This document shows positions 3,048-50,658 of a stretch of 64,000 nt of DNA, one piece after another. Both the position numbers and the translations under genes were made by a program. Each line of letters begins with the position of its first letter. The first letter of the stretch is position 1. The notes below the pieces were generated by a model. The model was not told where the DNA came from and made no database searches. It saw only the letters and a list, made by a program, of their open reading frames with translations. The DNA is from Escherichia phage vB_Eco_F31: the sequence record OP870147.1; one strand, written 5' to 3'.

Positions 3048-3734
3048 TTAGAAGTCGTGAGTAGAATCGGCTTCCATCGCAATAACATAACTTACTTGAG
3101 AGCTTTCAAACTTAGCTGCAACTTTATCACCAGCTCCCCACAACATTACTTTATAGTTACCTGGCTGAATTTTCATATTAGCCATATTGATTACGAAGTT
3201 AAAGTTGTTAGAACCATCATAATCGGTAAGAGTCAAAGAATACTTAGGACGAGTCAAGCCAGAATCTTCAACTTTATTGTAACCGTTGATAACAATTTTA
3301 CCATCTTTATTTGTAATAGCAATTGTATCAATCTGAAGACCACGTGAAACTCGAAGCAATTGTTGAAGGTCTTCAGCTTTAATTTCAGTAATCACAGAAG
3401 CCACTGGGAATTGAATTGGCTTATTAGGAAAAACAATGGTGCTCTTGTCAGCGGCAGGCCAATAAACTGTGGAACGTGTATCTGCAATTTTAATGTTGCC
3501 ATCAGTGTGCATTGAAATTTCAGCATCATCAGACACTAGACTCAAAATGCTTAAGAAGCTATTCAAATCATAAAGTGCTACGTCAAAATCAATTTCATCA
3601 GAGATATTTGCTTCCGCATAAGTGGTGCCATTAACTGCACGAGTCATAATAAATTTACCTTGACTCAGCAGAATGCCGGAGTTAATAGAGGCAAAGTTTT
3701 TCAGAATAGCGATAGTATCTTTAGACAGTTTCAT
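3048..3734 (-). CDS. 45: sliding clamp gp45
   Basis: 228 aa from ATG 3734 (MKLSKDTIAILKNFASINSG...), T4 gp45-like; track start is TTG 5 codons upstream. Confidence 0.93.
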   Translation of the reverse strand: MKLSKDTIAILKNFASINSGILLSQGKFIMTRAVNGTTYAEANISDEIDFDVALYDLNSFLSILSLVSDDAEISMHTDGNIKIADTRSTVYWPAADKSTIVFPNKPIQFPVASVITEIKAEDLQQLLRVSRGLQIDTIAITNKDGKIVINGYNKVEDSGLTRPKYSLTLTDYDGSNNFNFVINMANMKIQPGNYKVMLWGAGDKVAAKFESSQVSYVIAMEADSTHDF

Positions 3735-3776
3735 TTTATTTCCTTTCAAGACAATTCAAAGTTTATAACAAATTTA

Positions 3777-4193
3777 TTATGCAGCAACCATCTGCTTTTT
3801 AATAGCTTCAGGCAGTGATTCAATATATTCTGGAATTTTAGAAGCAACAATTTCACCAGCTGCAATTAGTTGTTCGTCGGCATCAACACAGTAGAAATCT
3901 TCCAGACGCTCAGAACCGTCTTTATCAAGAACGATTTTTCCGCCAGCTTCAATAGAATCTTTATAGTGCTTACGCATCAGATGAATCCACATATCAGATA
4001 CATCGTTATCAATAAAACCATAAATCATAAAACGAGTTTCTTGTGGAAGAGATTGAAGCTTTTTAGCACTTGCGTCATCACAATGCAGGACCCATGCTTT
4101 ACGAACACGATTATGGTTATGTGGGTTAGCGTCAGTACGGATAGAAGTAACTTTCAGATCAGCAGCAGTGAAACCTTTAGCAGTAGTAAACAT
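3777..4193 (-). CDS. rpbA: RNA polymerase binding protein RpbA (by synteny)
   Basis: 138-aa ORF between 45 and 46 as in T4; sequence not independently recognised. Confidence 0.5.
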   Translation of the reverse strand: MFTTAKGFTAADLKVTSIRTDANPHNHNRVRKAWVLHCDDASAKKLQSLPQETRFMIYGFIDNDVSDMWIHLMRKHYKDSIEAGGKIVLDKDGSERLEDFYCVDADEQLIAAGEIVASKIPEYIESLPEAIKKQMVAA

Positions 4194-6137: not shown

Positions 6138-6382
6138 ATGTATTCTCTTCGAATGAAGTCCTCTACATATTTTAACATGTCATCCCTATCAGCAAAATAT
6201 TCATCTAGTTCTGCATACATAACAACACCTGGCGCGTACTCACAGGTAACATACATTGTTCCAAAGAAACGAGGAGTTGATTCCTCGTAATTCTCAGTCC
6301 ATTCAACGATACCAATATAACCGTCACCAATACTAAATTCATGACGATGGATTTCATAATCAGTCTTCGTCATTATACGCAT
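6134..6382 (-). CDS. hypothetical protein
   Basis: 82-aa ORF; stop overlaps gene 46 ATG (ATGA). Confidence 0.5.
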   Translation of the reverse strand: MRIMTKTDYEIHRHEFSIGDGYIGIVEWTENYEESTPRFFGTMYVTCEYAPGVVMYAELDEYFADRDDMLKYVEDFIRREYI

Positions 6383-22966: not shown

Positions 22967-23233
22967 TTACTTATCGCACTTAGCAACATAATTAGGCATA
23001 TCACAGAATACAGAGCGAGTAACTACTCGTCCCTTTGACCATGCTTCAGTTGCTTGTCCGGCCGTGCTATTAATATAGCTTGATTTGATATTCTCAATAC
23101 CCTGAGAATGCGATGCATTTACCGAACCGTTGGAAGGTGCAGAAGACTGGTTACCACCAGCTCCTGCACCTGTGGTAGCACCAACAGAGAATGCCATCAT
23201 TACTGCGAATAAACCAATTACTAATTTTTTCAT
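22967..23233 (-). CDS. hypothetical secreted protein
   Basis: Signal peptide MKKLVIGLFAVMMAFSVGA then Gly/Ser-rich region. Confidence 0.55.
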   Translation of the reverse strand: MKKLVIGLFAVMMAFSVGATTGAGAGGNQSSAPSNGSVNASHSQGIENIKSSYINSTAGQATEAWSKGRVVTRSVFCDMPNYVAKCDK

Positions 23234-27659: not shown

Positions 27660-27862
27660 TATTCTTCTACATGTTGTTTACGGCCTTTCTTATCAATAAA
27701 GGTATATTCAACGAATGTTCCGATGTAGTCTTTATCTACATCATGTGGACTATTAATTGGACATTTAGTACGACAAATGCGTTCCCATTGACGAATAATT
27801 ACTGCCTTATTCTTTGGATCGTATGGATGTGGATAATGTGTATTCATAATAACGGTTCCCAA
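27635..27862 (-). CDS. hypothetical protein
   Basis: 75-aa ORF. Confidence 0.5.
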   Translation of the reverse strand: MGTVIMNTHYPHPYDPKNKAVIIRQWERICRTKCPINSPHDVDKDYIGTFVEYTFIDKKGRKQHVEEYCLKVTWL

Positions 27863-28341
27863 TCAACAATCACAATTTCTAGTTTAGTAGAATACGTATC
27901 TAAAATCTCTTCGATGACATCCCAGTTTCCACCACCAATACCTGCACCAATTCTTGGCATATAAATTACAGGCTTTATTATCTTATTCTTTCCGAATTCA
28001 TTTAATTCTATTATACAATTCATTAAAGCAGAGTACTCAAAATTAGGTCCCGGCTCAAACTGTGTATAAAGATTAAAGCAATAAGCTTTATGGGTCTTAA
28101 AATATTTTTCATAAACCGAATAAGTCCCGAGTTTAGACTTGTCTCCGAATTCGGTTTGAAGTTTATCGGCTTCTAAAATTTTTGGATAAGCCTTTGCTAA
28201 TTGGCCTGCTACACCGGCGCCCATTGTATGAAAACAATTACACCCATGAGCAATATTATTACCTTTAGAAAACAGGGCGACAATATCGCCCTTGATATAG
28301 TTTTTAATCACTTGCTGCAAGTCCTCTATTATAAGAGTCAA
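27844..28341 (-). CDS. macro-domain-like protein (possible ADP-ribose binding/hydrolysis)
   Basis: KGDIV...NIAHGCNCFHTMGAGVAGQ and PRIGAGIGGG resemble macro-domain Gly-rich motifs. Confidence 0.55.
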   Translation of the reverse strand: MTLIIEDLQQVIKNYIKGDIVALFSKGNNIAHGCNCFHTMGAGVAGQLAKAYPKILEADKLQTEFGDKSKLGTYSVYEKYFKTHKAYCFNLYTQFEPGPNFEYSALMNCIIELNEFGKNKIIKPVIYMPRIGAGIGGGNWDVIEEILDTYSTKLEIVIVDWEPLL

Positions 28342-28651
28342 CTAGACGGTCTACCATAGAATTGCATGCTGCCTTATCTTTAGGTTCCGCCACCGAGCAT
28401 TCTAATATTTGCCATTTTTTATAGTATCTTTTAATTAAGGTAGACGCCTTGAACCTACTAGACGCCCCATCTTTTTCTCCGTCTTTATACGCATATAACA
28501 ATTTTTGTGAAAAATCTACTTTACACTCTTGACTTTTACCACAGTAATCAGACGCCGTTCTGTTTGTATACTCCGTTACATCAGTATATGTAGTATTAGC
28601 AAGAGCGTTAAATGAAACCAAGCTAACTATTAAAGCCAACATTTTGGTCAT
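28304..28651 (-). CDS. hypothetical secreted protein
   Basis: Signal peptide MTKMLALIVSLVSFNALA; 4 Cys. Confidence 0.55.
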   Translation of the reverse strand: MTKMLALIVSLVSFNALANTTYTDVTEYTNRTASDYCGKSQECKVDFSQKLLYAYKDGEKDGASSRFKASTLIKRYYKKWQILECSVAEPKDKAACNSMVDRLVDSYNRGLAASD

Positions 28652-29190
28652 TCTTTTATTTCCAGTAGTTTATTTGATTTAAGGTAATTAGCCTTTTCTA
28701 GGACTTCAGAAGCATATTTACTTCCAGCACTTGTCTTCCATCCCGCATTATATGAGGATATAGCTTTTCTTATATCCCCGTTATGTATATTTAACCAATA
28801 AGAAAATTCGATATAAGCCCATCTGGCTGAATTAGACCGCTTAGATAGCATTTTCTTAATTTGGGCATCAGTCATATTATAACCAAGCTGGTTAATTCTT
28901 GCCCTCATTGTTGGTAGATAATTTTGGAACATTCCATACGCATGGTGACCTTTCTTATCTTTAAGATTAATACCGGCAGATGATTCCTGCCATAGTATTG
29001 CGGCCATTATGTATCCAAGTCCTTTCTTATGCATATTTTCATGCGTTTTAAATTTTCCGTCCTTAGAAAACTGTTCCCCAAACTGATAAGCATAATTCAA
29101 GTTATCGAGTTGGACATTACTAAAAGTATGCTCGGAGCTATGTGCTGATAACGAAAGAGCAAATAGACCAGCGAGTAGTGCTTTTCTCAT
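28648..29190 (-). CDS. secreted lytic transglycosylase-like protein (SLT domain)
   Basis: Signal peptide; SLT motifs LWQESSAG, YGMFQ, SYNAGW. Confidence 0.6.
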   Translation of the reverse strand: MRKALLAGLFALSLSAHSSEHTFSNVQLDNLNYAYQFGEQFSKDGKFKTHENMHKKGLGYIMAAILWQESSAGINLKDKKGHHAYGMFQNYLPTMRARINQLGYNMTDAQIKKMLSKRSNSARWAYIEFSYWLNIHNGDIRKAISSYNAGWKTSAGSKYASEVLEKANYLKSNKLLEIKE

Positions 29191-29198
29191 GTTTACCT

Positions 29199-29657
29199 CT
29201 AGATTTTAATCACTGCTTTAGAAGCTTTTCCTGGTAGTCGTTTACTGTTAATAATAGCCATTCTACATTGAAGAGTCTTCATTTTGAATGCCGGATTTTC
29301 GCGACAAACTGTAAGTCCTAACCAAAGATTTCCGTCAGTTATTTCTAAACGGCCTGGACGATACTCGACACCTTCGACAAAATCTTCATCAACATCTGGA
29401 CGTGCCGGCATTGATAAAAATTCTGCAACTTCTTTAACGTGATTTTTTACTTTATGAAATAATTCAAAAACGTAATTCTCATCTATTTCTCTCTGGATGG
29501 CACGATCTAAGAGATGTTGAGAATACTTGATATGAAAGCCTGGTAGTCCAAGAGACTTTGCAGCATCTTTTATACCGGCATTTATTTTGCGGAACTCCGT
29601 TTCAAAGATTCGACGGAGTTTATTACGGCGGATAAAAACTTCCGAATTGATAGTCAT
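29199..29657 (-). CDS. regB: endoribonuclease RegB
   Basis: 152 aa; MTINSEVFIRRNKLRR...QHLLDRAIQREIDE...GRLEITDGNLWLG close to T4 RegB from memory. Confidence 0.92.
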   Translation of the reverse strand: MTINSEVFIRRNKLRRIFETEFRKINAGIKDAAKSLGLPGFHIKYSQHLLDRAIQREIDENYVFELFHKVKNHVKEVAEFLSMPARPDVDEDFVEGVEYRPGRLEITDGNLWLGLTVCRENPAFKMKTLQCRMAIINSKRLPGKASKAVIKI

Positions 29658-33274: not shown

Positions 33275-33556
33275 CTATTTTTCTGAAGCGCCTGAAATAT
33301 ATTTTTCAAGACGTTGTTTCATTAGCGAGCCGTTCTTAGCGATTTCTTCTGGTTTATCGCACATACGCAACAAGGCTTCAAGCTTAGCGATATCGCTGGT
33401 ACGTTCAAATTTGCGAGTATCTATCTTACTAGCAAGTTCAGAAATACGTGCTAATAGACTTTCGGCTTCAACCAAAGCTGCACCTAGCTTAGTTGCAAAT
33501 GTGTCAGTAGCTTCGTTAAGAATAGATTCTGATAAAAATTCACTATATGTTTTCAT
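33275..33556 (-). CDS. internal protein (capsid-targeted)
   Basis: [13 protein letters not shown] from internal ATG. Confidence 0.7.
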
Positions 33557-34041
33557 ATATACGCTTTCCAAGTTCCTGTTTTAAATGTTGAGATTACGCG
33601 TTTCGCGCGATTAGGTGTCTGACGATACCATTTAGATTGGGCTAGATTTACTGCCGCTTCATCCCAACGTTTCTGTTGAAGCATACGAAGAGAATTAGTA
33701 AAACCGGCGACGCCTGATACACCCATTTGGAAGACCATATTGACCAATGCACACCGACGAACTGCATCTAAAGAATCATATACCGGTTTAAGTTTAGCAT
33801 TACCCAAGATTCCGCGGACGGCTTTATCAACGTCTTCATTAAATAGCTTTTCAGCCTCATCAAGGGTAATTGTACCGTTGCATTTACGTCCGATCATTCT
33901 GTCAAGTTCAGCTTTAGCTACGGCTAAAGACGGATTCTTTGTTACTAAATGGCCAATGCCAATCGTCCAAAAACCTTCAGTGTCTTTGTATAAAGTCAGT
34001 CTAAGACCTTCGTCATTACGAAGCATTTCAAATATATTCAT
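33553..34041 (-). CDS. e: lysozyme (endolysin)
   Basis: From ATG 34041: [32 protein letters not shown]..., T4 lysozyme-like. Confidence 0.95.
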
Positions 34042-34043
34042 AA

Positions 34044-34067
34044 TACCTCCCACGTTTATAGGAGGTA
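34044..34067 (-). promoter_or_regulatory. hairpin sequestering the lysozyme (e) SD
   Basis: 7-bp repeat TACCTCC/GGAGGTA with TATAAACGTG in loop; TATAAGTA and AATAAATA late-promoter-like elements adjacent. Confidence 0.55.
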
Positions 34068-48349: not shown

Positions 48350-48925
48350 TTGTTATTTACATTCTTCGACCCAATAGGATATAGTGCTAAAACAGTTAAT
48401 AAGAATGCACCTACTATTCCTATGACAGACATATTTCGTAACTATAAAGAGTACTTTAAGCGTGTGGCTGCCAATTATAGATTACGTTCTTATTATATTA
48501 AAGGCTCTCCACGTCCTGAAGAACTAGCTAATATCATTTATGGCAACCCGCAATTATACTGGGTTCTTTTGATGTGCAACGATAACTACGACCCGTATTA
48601 TGGTTGGATTACATCTCAGGAAGCAGCGTATCAAGCTTCTATTCAGAAATATGCTAATGCCGGTGGAGACCAAATTCTTTACCATATTAACGAGAACCGT
48701 GAGAAATTTTACAATTTAGTTTCATATCCAGACGAGCCTTTAGTGTGGTACGATAAAGGTGATGAAGCTCGTAAGTATCCGCAATATAAAGGACCTTTAG
48801 CTGCAGTAGATACTTATGAAGCGGCAGTATTAGATAATGAAAAACTTCGTAAAATAAAAATTGTTGCAAAAGAAGATATAAACTCGTTTATTACTGATTT
48901 GATTCGTGAGATGGAGATTGCATAA
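48350..48925 (+). CDS. 53: baseplate wedge protein gp53
   Basis: 191 aa, TTG start 8 nt after SD GGAAGGAG; late promoter upstream; first plus-strand gene. Confidence 0.8.
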   Translation: MLFTFFDPIGYSAKTVNKNAPTIPMTDIFRNYKEYFKRVAANYRLRSYYIKGSPRPEELANIIYGNPQLYWVLLMCNDNYDPYYGWITSQEAAYQASIQKYANAGGDQILYHINENREKFYNLVSYPDEPLVWYDKGDEARKYPQYKGPLAAVDTYEAAVLDNEKLRKIKIVAKEDINSFITDLIREMEIA

Positions 48926-50658
48926 TGGAAATGATTAGCAGTAGCCTTAATTGGTTCGTGGGTGTTGTCGAGGACAGAATGGACCCATTAAAACAAGGGC
49001 GAGTTCGAGTGCGAGTGGTTGGACTTCATCCCGCACAGAGAGTACAAGGCGATGTGCAGGGTATTCCTACAGAAAAACTTCCATGGATGACTGTTATTCA
49101 ACCTATTACGTCTGCATCAATGTCAGGTATTGGTGGTTCTGTTACAGGTCCTGTTGAAGGAACTCGAGTATATGGTCATTTCTTAGACAAATGGAAAACA
49201 AACGGGATTGTACTTGGTACATATGGTGGAATTGTACGTGAAAAGCCTAATAGACTTGAAGGTTTTTCAGACCCGACAGGTCAGTATCCGCGACGTTTAG
49301 GTAATGATACGAACGTATTAAACCAAGGTGGTGAAGCTGGTTATTATTCAAACTCTAACGTAATTCAAGATAACAACTTGGATTATGGTATAAACCCAGA
49401 CGATACAGATTTAGCAAATATTCCAGAAGATGATGACCCTAATTTTACAATAACAGAAATGTTACGTCGTGACGAAGGTCTTCGTGATAAAGTGTATTGG
49501 GACCATCTCGGATATCCTACCGTAGGTATTGGACACCTTATAGTAATGGAAAAAACCCGAGATATGTCTCGAATTAATAAATTGTTATCCGATCAAGTAG
49601 GGCGTGAAGTAACAGGAAATCCAGGGACTATTACATTAGAAGAAGCAACAGCGTTATTTGAGAAAGACCTTGCTAAGATGCAGAAAGACATTCGTTCTAA
49701 TTCTAAAGTAGGTCCTGTTTATGCTAAAATGAACAGGTCTCGTCAAATGGCATTAGAAAACATGTGCTTCCAAATGGGTGTTGGTGGTGTAGCAAAATTC
49801 AATACTATGCTTAAAGCAATGGCCACAGGTGATTGGAAAACTGCATACAAATCTGGACGCGATTCGTTATGGTTCCAACAGACTAAAGGACGCGCTTCAC
49901 GTGTAACAACAATTATTTTAACTGGTAACATGGAATCATATGGCGTTCCTGTTAAAACACCACCTTCACCAGGAGTTGGTGCCGATTTAGTTACTAGAAA
50001 TACCGATCCAGAAGACCCTGCTGGTCCTCCTGTTCCATTAGATTCACGTATCCTTTTTAAAGAACCGGAATCAAGTTATCGTGGTGAGTATCCATACGTT
50101 CATGCTATGGAAACAGAAAGTGGTCATATCCAAGAATTTGACGATACTCCAGGTAATGAACGTTATCGCTTAGTTCATCCAACAGGGTCATATGAGGAAG
50201 TTTCTCCATCCGGGCGTCGTACTCGTAAAACTGTAGAAGACCTTTTTGACATCACTAATGGTGATGGGAACTTCTTGATTTCTGGCGATAAGCTTGTTAA
50301 CGTTGGTGCTAATGAAATATATTATAACATGGCAGACCGCCTCCATCAAATAGACGGCAATGACACAATCTTTATTCGTGGTAACCAATCTAAAACTGTT
50401 GAAGGCGATGGAACTCTTTACGTTAAGGGTAATATCAAAATAGTTGTTGACGGAAATGCAGATATTCTTGTTAAAGGCGATGCTAAAACTCAGGTCGAAG
50501 GGAATCATGATTACACCGTCAACGGAAACGTTAAATGGACTGTTAATGGTAATGTTGATATGACTGTTGCCGGGGATTGGGCAGAAACAATGTCTACAAT
50601 GAGCTCAGTAGCTTCAGGACAATACACTGTTGACGGATCTCGTATTGATATTGGGTAA
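48925..50658 (+). CDS. 5: baseplate hub and tail lysozyme gp5
   Basis: 577 aa; internal lysozyme domain (DEGLRDKVYWDHLGYPTVGIGHL) and C-terminal VxGxxxxxVxG beta-helix repeats. Confidence 0.93.
   Translation: MEMISSSLNWFVGVVEDRMDPLKQGRVRVRVVGLHPAQRVQGDVQGIPTEKLPWMTVIQPITSASMSGIGGSVTGPVEGTRVYGHFLDKWKTNGIVLGTYGGIVREKPNRLEGFSDPTGQYPRRLGNDTNVLNQGGEAGYYSNSNVIQDNNLDYGINPDDTDLANIPEDDDPNFTITEMLRRDEGLRDKVYWDHLGYPTVGIGHLIVMEKTRDMSRINKLLSDQVGREVTGNPGTITLEEATALFEKDLAKMQKDIRSNSKVGPVYAKMNRSRQMALENMCFQMGVGGVAKFNTMLKAMATGDWKTAYKSGRDSLWFQQTKGRASRVTTIILTGNMESYGVPVKTPPSPGVGADLVTRNTDPEDPAGPPVPLDSRILFKEPESSYRGEYPYVHAMETESGHIQEFDDTPGNERYRLVHPTGSYEEVSPSGRRTRKTVEDLFDITNGDGNFLISGDKLVNVGANEIYYNMADRLHQIDGNDTIFIRGNQSKTVEGDGTLYVKGNIKIVVDGNADILVKGDAKTQVEGNHDYTVNGNVKWTVNGNVDMTVAGDWAETMSTMSSVASGQYTVDGSRIDIG

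Follow-up and report, generated by a model that had tools for sequence, protein, structure and literature searches.

Two T4-type early genes, vs.1 and vs, in Escherichia phage vB_Eco_F31: a predicted secreted lytic transglycosylase and a Vs protein with a periplasmic profile

The DNA analysed here, the window, is a stretch of 64,000 nucleotides (nt) from Escherichia phage vB_Eco_F31 (OP870147.1), a Mosigvirus (T4-like, Straboviridae); the stretch has 99.5% DNA identity with Escherichia phage vB_EcoM_NBG1. Two adjacent open reading frames (ORFs) of 180 and 115 amino acids (aa) in this window are orthologues of vs.1 and vs, which have long been known from T4, and to that extent the observation is mostly a rediscovery and adds little. 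Its main use is that it raises a concrete, checkable doubt about the textbook annotation of Vs as a modifier of valyl-tRNA synthetase. The full reading proposed below is that both products are periplasmic, Vs.1 as a GH23 transglycosylase and Vs as a small protein stapled by disulfides that is possibly a modulator or partner of Vs.1, and we think it probably correct.

Results and discussion

The features of the two genes are as follows.

28648..29190, minus strand: vs.1 orthologue, 180 aa; precursor of a predicted secreted single-domain SLT/GH23 lytic transglycosylase
29137..29190, minus strand: residues 1-18 of Vs.1, a predicted Sec signal peptide, MRKALLAGLFALSLSAHS followed by S; expected mature start SEHTF
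28972..28995, minus strand: SLT motif I, LWQESSAG, residues 66-73; codon of the putative catalytic Glu69 at 28984..28986
28924..28935, minus strand: SLT motif II, GMFQ, residues 86-89; G86, Q89 and N90 invariant
28738..28755, minus strand: SLT motif III, SYNAGW, residues 146-151; Y147, N148 and G150 invariant; confirmed on the DNA
28304..28651, minus strand: orthologue of vs (115 aa), named 'valyl-tRNA synthetase modifier' in annotations; predicted to be exported, with four helices and two disulfides
28598..28651, minus strand: residues 1-18 of Vs, a predicted Sec signal peptide, MTKMLALIVSLVSFNALA followed by N; expected mature start NTTYT
28364..28543, minus strand: four Cys codons of Vs, C37 at 28541..28543, C43 at 28523..28525, C85 at 28397..28399 and C96 at 28364..28366
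28648..28651, minus strand: 4-nt ATGA overlap of the vs.1 stop and the vs start (translational coupling), read from the DNA

The original prediction, made from the letters alone, had placed two genes for secreted proteins at these coordinates without giving a strand; both ORFs are present, on the minus strand. Its author did not recognise T4 vs.1 and vs, or the 'valyl-tRNA synthetase modifier' annotation of the 115-aa ORF.

The 180-aa ORF is a member of PHROG 600 (phrog_600, E=3.7e-67 across residues 1-178) and occupies the position of vs.1, the gene order tk–tk.1-4–vs–vs.1–regB in the window being the same as in T4. The 115-aa ORF is homologous to the T4 vs ORF and belongs to PHROG 1256, 'valyl tRNA synthetase modifier' (phrog_1256, E=3.3e-35); a precomputed match to PF26829 is found on all Vs homologues. 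Both exact proteins are already public, the longer in NCBI and UniRef as 'lytic transglycosylase domain-containing protein' and the shorter as 'valyl-tRNA synthetase modifier'. In GenBank and UniRef the label of the neighbouring gene has been carried over to many vs.1 homologues, wrongly named 'endoribonuclease', 'RegB' or 'site-specific RNA endonuclease', and many vs homologues carry the name 'valyl-tRNA synthetase', i.e. that of the enzyme itself.

Vs.1 as a predicted GH23-type enzyme

Family-1 lytic transglycosylases have a signature consisting of a Glu in an E-S motif, followed by G-(L/M)-x-Q, A-Y-N-x-G and Y-x-x-x-V/L. The corresponding segments of Vs.1 are LWQE69S71SAG, YG86MFQ89N90, SY147N148AG150W and KY159ASEV163L, the first three of which had been pointed out in the original prediction, and they are (nearly) invariant in 29 relatives. 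E69, S71, G86, Q89, N90, Y147, N148, G150 and Y159 are strictly invariant in the alignment of these relatives, which extends to 40% identity. We take these residues to be motifs I-IV of the Slt70-type family-1 enzymes, and presumably Glu69 is catalytic as in that family.

When the Pfam SLT profile (PF01464) was run against Vs.1 of the window alone, the score was 18.8 bits (E=1.3e-3), below the gathering threshold of 21.3, which counts against the assignment. The profile was matched by 27 of the 29 relatives at E<=0.01 (best E=1.3e-7), and a subset of the relatives has a precomputed PF01464 match. The AlphaFold2 (AF2) model of Vs.1, with a predicted local distance difference test (pLDDT) score of 87, has the lysozyme-like GH23 fold; the signal region appears in it as a low-pLDDT helix (residues 2-14). 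Sequence searches of the PDB with single proteins and with profiles gave nothing significant for either Vs.1 or Vs, and NCBIfam gave zero matches. Taken together, the motifs, the family-level Pfam matches and the predicted fold make the claim that the 180-aa product is an SLT/GH23-type enzyme a well supported prediction.

An alternative in which Vs.1, for all its GH23 fold, is a goose-type lysozyme or chitinase-like hydrolase, or binds glycan without catalysis, was considered and is distinctly unlikely. Its motifs I-IV agree with the Slt70 family, Pfam SLT is its sole family match, and the invariant Glu makes a dead enzyme improbable. A second conserved carboxylate after E69 was looked for in the alignment of the 29 relatives and none was found, so a transglycosylase fits better than a goose-type lysozyme, although this is an indirect hint only. 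Mature Vs.1 would then be a single-domain family-1 (Slt70-like, GH23) lytic transglycosylase of about 18.7 kDa and pI about 9.6. It would cut the bond between N-acetylmuramic acid and N-acetylglucosamine in host peptidoglycan, Glu69 alone serving as acid/base catalyst, by transglycosylase rather than hydrolase chemistry as far as the motifs indicate.

The SLT similarity of vs.1 is already published and in databases. Nolan et al. 2006, with reference to earlier PSI-BLAST work, described the SLT match of vs.1 as 'marginally significant' in six T4-like genomes (PMC1524935). No experimental study of Vs.1 was found in the literature searched.

Predicted export of Vs.1 and Vs

Both proteins begin with canonical Sec-type n, h and c regions ending in an AXA or AXS site, in agreement with the signal peptides originally proposed. 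Vs.1 starts with MRK, which provides two basic residues, followed by the 13-residue uncharged core ALLAGLFALSLSA and then HS before the mature S, giving an A-H-S site. Vs starts with MTK, followed by MLALIVSLVSF and NALA before the mature N, giving a classical A-L-A site. In both families it is the properties of the segment that are conserved and not its letters. A basic n-region, 8-20 uncharged core residues and a net-negative early mature region were found in 28 of 29 Vs.1 sequences, and even relatives at 25-36% identity all retain the basic n-region and uncharged core. All 51 distinct Vs homologues, taken from 54 viral loci, have a basic n-region, 11-20 uncharged residues and a net-negative early mature region.

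A signal-peptide heuristic (basic n-region, hydrophobic core, small-x-small site) was run, over the six frames of the window, on every ORF of 50 aa or more that begins with ATG. Only five of 198 passed, and among the five were vs.1, vs and the known periplasmic antiholin rI. The signal peptides of vs.1 and vs are therefore more than a chance resemblance. Possible further exported early proteins were noticed in the window: an 88-aa ORF of PHROG 2243 at 22967..23233 (minus strand), with the signal-peptide-like N-terminus MKKLVIGLFAVMMAFSVGA, and a 50-aa ORF with a signal-peptide-like start at 6205..6357 (minus strand).

The genes had been described as early, which holds for their T4 orthologues: in T4 omics data (PMC9697503 supplement), in which both proteins were detected, vs and vs.1 are classed as 'early RNA, middle protein'. 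It has also been reported that T4 Vs with an N-terminal His tag is insoluble when made in the cytoplasm (PMC8076793). Judged by their N-termini, Vs.1 and Vs would both be exported and have their signals cleaved. Transcribed early within a tightly packed regB–vs.1–vs–tk.4 block and made with Sec signal peptides, they would reach the periplasm of the infected cell.

Vs: a translation factor or a periplasmic protein?

In the AF2 model (pLDDT 85.6) Vs forms a bundle of four helices, residues 15-37, 41-64, 69-85 and 90-113; residues 1-13 have pLDDT below 50. The four Cys previously counted in the 115-aa product are at positions 37, 43, 85 and 96. In the model C37 and C43 bracket the loop between helices 1 and 2, and C85 and C96 bracket that between helices 3 and 4. 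Four Cys are found in all 51 homologues; C37, C43 and C96 each fall in one column in 51/51, and the column of the third Cys is shifted in the alignment. From this geometry, disulfides C37-C43 and C85-C96 are predicted, and mature Vs (predicted mass 11.0 kDa) would be a phage-specific four-helix protein stapled by both. Besides its 4 Cys, the mature form has 1 Trp.

In the PG7-like lineage of Enterobacter phages (loci L039-L041 and L062, approximately 3549-3875) the plain signal peptide of Vs is replaced by a lipobox, MKKLFVLLVV.ALSGC. No internal Met of Vs ahead of M99 is placed so as to yield a cytoplasmic isoform lacking the signal. Relatives of Vs were found only in T4-like phages when the single sequence was searched against 1.8 billion representatives and a profile against 5.8 billion proteins. 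One match of 378 aa (P0133) was spurious, being due to a low-complexity repeat. A Foldseek search of the PDB with the Vs model gave globin and cytokine-like helical proteins as the best 50 of 108 matches, all with E>0.9 and none significant.

These properties have to be set against the annotation. The name 'valyl-tRNA synthetase modifier' is universal and is borne by the UniProt entry VS_BPT4, and the tau function, binding of host valyl-tRNA synthetase, is attributed to Müller and Marchin 1975/1977 (PMC8076793). If the annotation is right, Vs is the tau factor and binds the host enzyme in the cytoplasm, its hydrophobic N-terminus being unused, inefficient or only partial for export. We regard this as rather unlikely. 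The signal peptide is conserved in kind through the 51 homologues, with a lipobox in one lineage, the four invariant Cys are spaced as disulfide partners would be, an internal start codon by which the signal could be bypassed is absent, and vs always adjoins the gene of another protein predicted to be exported. The conserved signal or lipobox, the universal Cys and the linkage to vs.1 together suggest a periplasmic profile, with which a cytoplasmic synthetase as partner is hard to reconcile.

Classical genetics speaks for the other side: vs reportedly affects the growth of T4 on a valS(ts) host, which would imply cytoplasmic action of the true vs product. Tau, which we take to be a protein of about 10 kDa, is near in size to the predicted mature Vs; such a size would also suit a cleaved, exported form and does not discriminate between the two readings. 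No paper tying vs mutations to this ORF by sequence, and none on the export of Vs, was found in the literature searched. From the sequence profile it is most likely that Vs acts in the periplasm and not on the cytoplasmic valyl-tRNA synthetase.

If Vs is indeed periplasmic, the label 'valyl-tRNA synthetase modifier' on hundreds of genomes is wrong or incomplete and the real tau gene is to be found. The 50-year-old vs/tau assignment would then belong to another ORF, or would reflect an association formed after cell breakage.

Linkage of vs.1 and vs

The genes flanking the pair in the window are as follows.

29199..29657, minus strand: regB (endoribonuclease), upstream neighbour of vs.1; Pfam REGB_T4, E=4e-69
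27844..28311, minus strand: tk.4 orthologue (macro-domain protein, Pfam Macro), downstream neighbour of vs; its GTG start overlaps the vs stop

Linkage was examined in the 54 loci with a Vs.1 of 42% or more identity to the query. In every one of them the start of a Vs homologue falls within -8 to +7 nt of the Vs.1 stop. The flanking genes vary more: regB immediately precedes vs.1 in 47/54 loci and tk.4 immediately follows vs in 28/54, and in Acinetobacter phages both have gone from these positions while vs.1–vs is kept. This linkage is suggestive of a functional relationship and is no proof of one. Vs, always encoded directly after vs.1, may act as a modulator or partner of Vs.1.

A gene of PHROG 4957 comes directly after vs in many T4-like phages, including those of Klebsiella, Enterobacter and Acinetobacter (e.g. 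L003 1774-2202, L007 2309-2701 and approximately 24 loci among L017-L062, such as L020 3866-4270). It encodes a protein of 133-152 aa with a signal peptide, a mature start 'WE/WD…' and 2-4 Cys. PHROG 4957 is absent from T4 and from the window; elsewhere, vs.1, vs and this gene make up a three-gene cluster of predicted exported proteins.

Several observations weigh against a partnership. In T4 early regions closely abutting stops and starts are the norm, vs.1 is adjoined as well by regB, which encodes a cytoplasmic nuclease, and vs is coupled to tk.4, so adjacency alone is weak evidence. Aeromonas phages and more distant relatives have Vs.1 but no Vs, and Vs is truncated or split in loci L028 and L043; Vs is therefore no obligatory antidote. 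Nor was similarity found between Vs and Ivy, MliC/PliC, PliG, LprI/DUF1311 or Spackle.

The broken copies of Vs are of two kinds: in L043 (PG7, 3549-3876) the gene is split into two ORFs, and in L028 and the homologue P0132 an internal deletion has removed two Cys. In the Aeromonas T4-like phages (L063-L065 and L068) regB–vs.1 is kept and a lipoprotein or secreted protein of 140-146 aa, MKKSIAVVLALSIYGC, is encoded before the macro-domain gene (e.g. L063 4109-4549); jackhmmer showed it to be unrelated to PHROG 4957.

The most serious alternative is that Vs.1 and Vs, although both exported, have no functional connection and lie side by side merely because gene order in this early region of T4 is frozen. 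With the regB–vs.1 adjacency nearly as conserved, and Vs dispensed with or broken in some phages, this is a close competitor, not far short of an even chance. It accounts less well for a junction found in every locus while the flanking neighbours vary, and retained in Acinetobacter phages after loss of regB and tk.4. The predicted common compartment of Vs.1 and Vs, and the third exported protein that joins the cluster in many phages, also speak for a partnership. Within the whole reading, any such partnership and the physiological role are the most conjectural parts. The more specific proposal, that Vs is no cytoplasmic translation factor but a periplasmic partner, perhaps restraining or targeting Vs.1 within an early wall-remodelling module, is tentative and on balance doubtful.

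Vs as a possible inhibitor

Lytic transglycosylases over-produced in the periplasm lyse E. coli, and the host proteins Ivy and MliC partly inhibit them (PMC10139938); this provides a rationale for a co-exported modulator such as Vs. Known inhibitor types were compared with Vs. The LprI family was a candidate: its members are helical periplasmic proteins with four Cys, and the level of lytic transglycosylases is under the control of ScwA (PMC7933661). At the level of sequence the comparison was negative: hhalign of Vs against E. coli YecT, as an LprI/DUF1311-like protein, gave a probability of 3.5%, and mature Vs scored 9.9 against a small LprI alignment, signal peptides having been removed, where column-shuffled controls had a mean of 11.0 and a maximum of 15.7. 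A broader LprI profile was attempted from genome contigs and only Escherichia orthologues were returned. None of 26 Vs homologues had a match in Pfam, LprI included, even at E<=10. A Spackle-like fold was also rejected, Spackle not being among the best 50 of the 108 Foldseek matches.

Early wall remodelling or lysis?

The window also contains e at 33553..34044 (minus strand) and gp5 at 48925..50658 (plus strand). Both belong to Pfam Phage_lysozyme (GH24), a different family, which bears out the earlier statement that the secreted pair is separate from these two genes. Vs.1 is thus a third muralytic candidate, unrelated by sequence family to the lysozymes e and gp5, and T4-like phages would carry a third muralytic enzyme that is of GH23 type, early and predicted to be exported. 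It might remodel the cell wall, confer resistance to lysis from without, promote the release of vesicles or help with lysis. Superinfection exclusion and lysis timing, the roles put forward in the original prediction, are speculative.

Help with lysis might take the form of an auxiliary secreted endolysin that accumulates in the periplasm for late lysis instead of remodelling the wall early. Nolan et al. 2006 proposed 'some role in cell lysis' for vs.1 (PMC1524935). In Cronobacter phage S13 (L066, 2776-4117) and in L067 (2941-4239) a distant PHROG 600 gene is directly followed by genes for Rz-like spanins, the i-spanin (phrog_739) and the o-spanin (phrog_812), with pseT next, an arrangement of the lysis-cassette kind which suggests that PHROG 600 serves as a secreted endolysin in some phages. 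For the window gene the idea is nevertheless improbable, as in T4-type genomes vs.1 is distant from the spanins and holin and is transcribed early.

T4 e mutants fail to lyse, so Vs.1 is no substitute for e under laboratory conditions. A signal-anchor-release (SAR) endolysin was rejected too. SAR domains are weakly hydrophobic stretches of about 16-22 residues without a peptidase site, and the proteins are expressed late under holin control. Vs.1 has a short, 13-residue uncharged core followed by A-H-S and the mature S, the RNA of its T4 orthologue is early and no holin or spanin gene is adjacent. A true endolysin role for Vs.1 of the window is accordingly ranked below early wall remodelling.

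The start of tk.4

The tk.4 ORF can be read as 27844..28341 (minus strand) but truly starts at the GTG at 28311, overlapping the vs stop, since T4 Tk.4 aligns from that GTG. This affects a 'terminator after vs' annotated in phage NBG1, a hairpin at 28292..28274 (minus strand) that was also met by a consensus scan. With tk.4 starting at 28311 the hairpin falls within coding sequence, where it encodes KGDIVAL, and it was rejected as the end of the operon because it sits inside the conserved N-terminus of the tk.4 macro domain. The NBG1 coding sequence of tk.4 (126 aa) is truncated at its N-terminus.

Comparison with known systems

The closest known protein to Vs.1 of the window is T4 Vs.1 (P13311; PHROG 600), which is 83% identical, of equal length and with the same signal sequence, and is also encoded between regB and vs; there is no difference of substance between the two. 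The GH23 family-1 enzymes with which Vs.1 was compared are Slt70, MltC, MltE and EtgA of E. coli and Slt, MltF and MltD of P. aeruginosa. Unlike these, Vs.1 would consist of the catalytic domain alone, about 160 aa, lacking superhelical, LysM and lipid-anchor modules, and it is phage-encoded and early. Secreted endolysins in spanin cassettes are resembled by the distant phrog_600 members of Cronobacter phage S13 and L067. The window vs.1 differs from lysis-cassette endolysins in being early, about 5 kb from e and without adjacent spanins, and in having a peptidase site.

The idea of a Vs–Vs.1 partnership draws on a functional analogy with Spackle (gp61.3) of T4, a small, early, helical periplasmic protein that inhibits the gp5 tail lysozyme (PMC7677548). 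The analogy would be one of principle: Spackle targets an incoming GH24 lysozyme, whereas the proposed target of Vs is a co-encoded GH23 enzyme, and the two small proteins match in neither sequence nor fold. For Vs itself the known counterpart is T4 Vs (P13310 / VS_BPT4; PHROG 1256; PF26829), of which the window protein is a 67% identical orthologue of 115 aa in the same position. The annotated function of T4 Vs is cytoplasmic, yet the whole Vs family bears the hallmarks of exported proteins.

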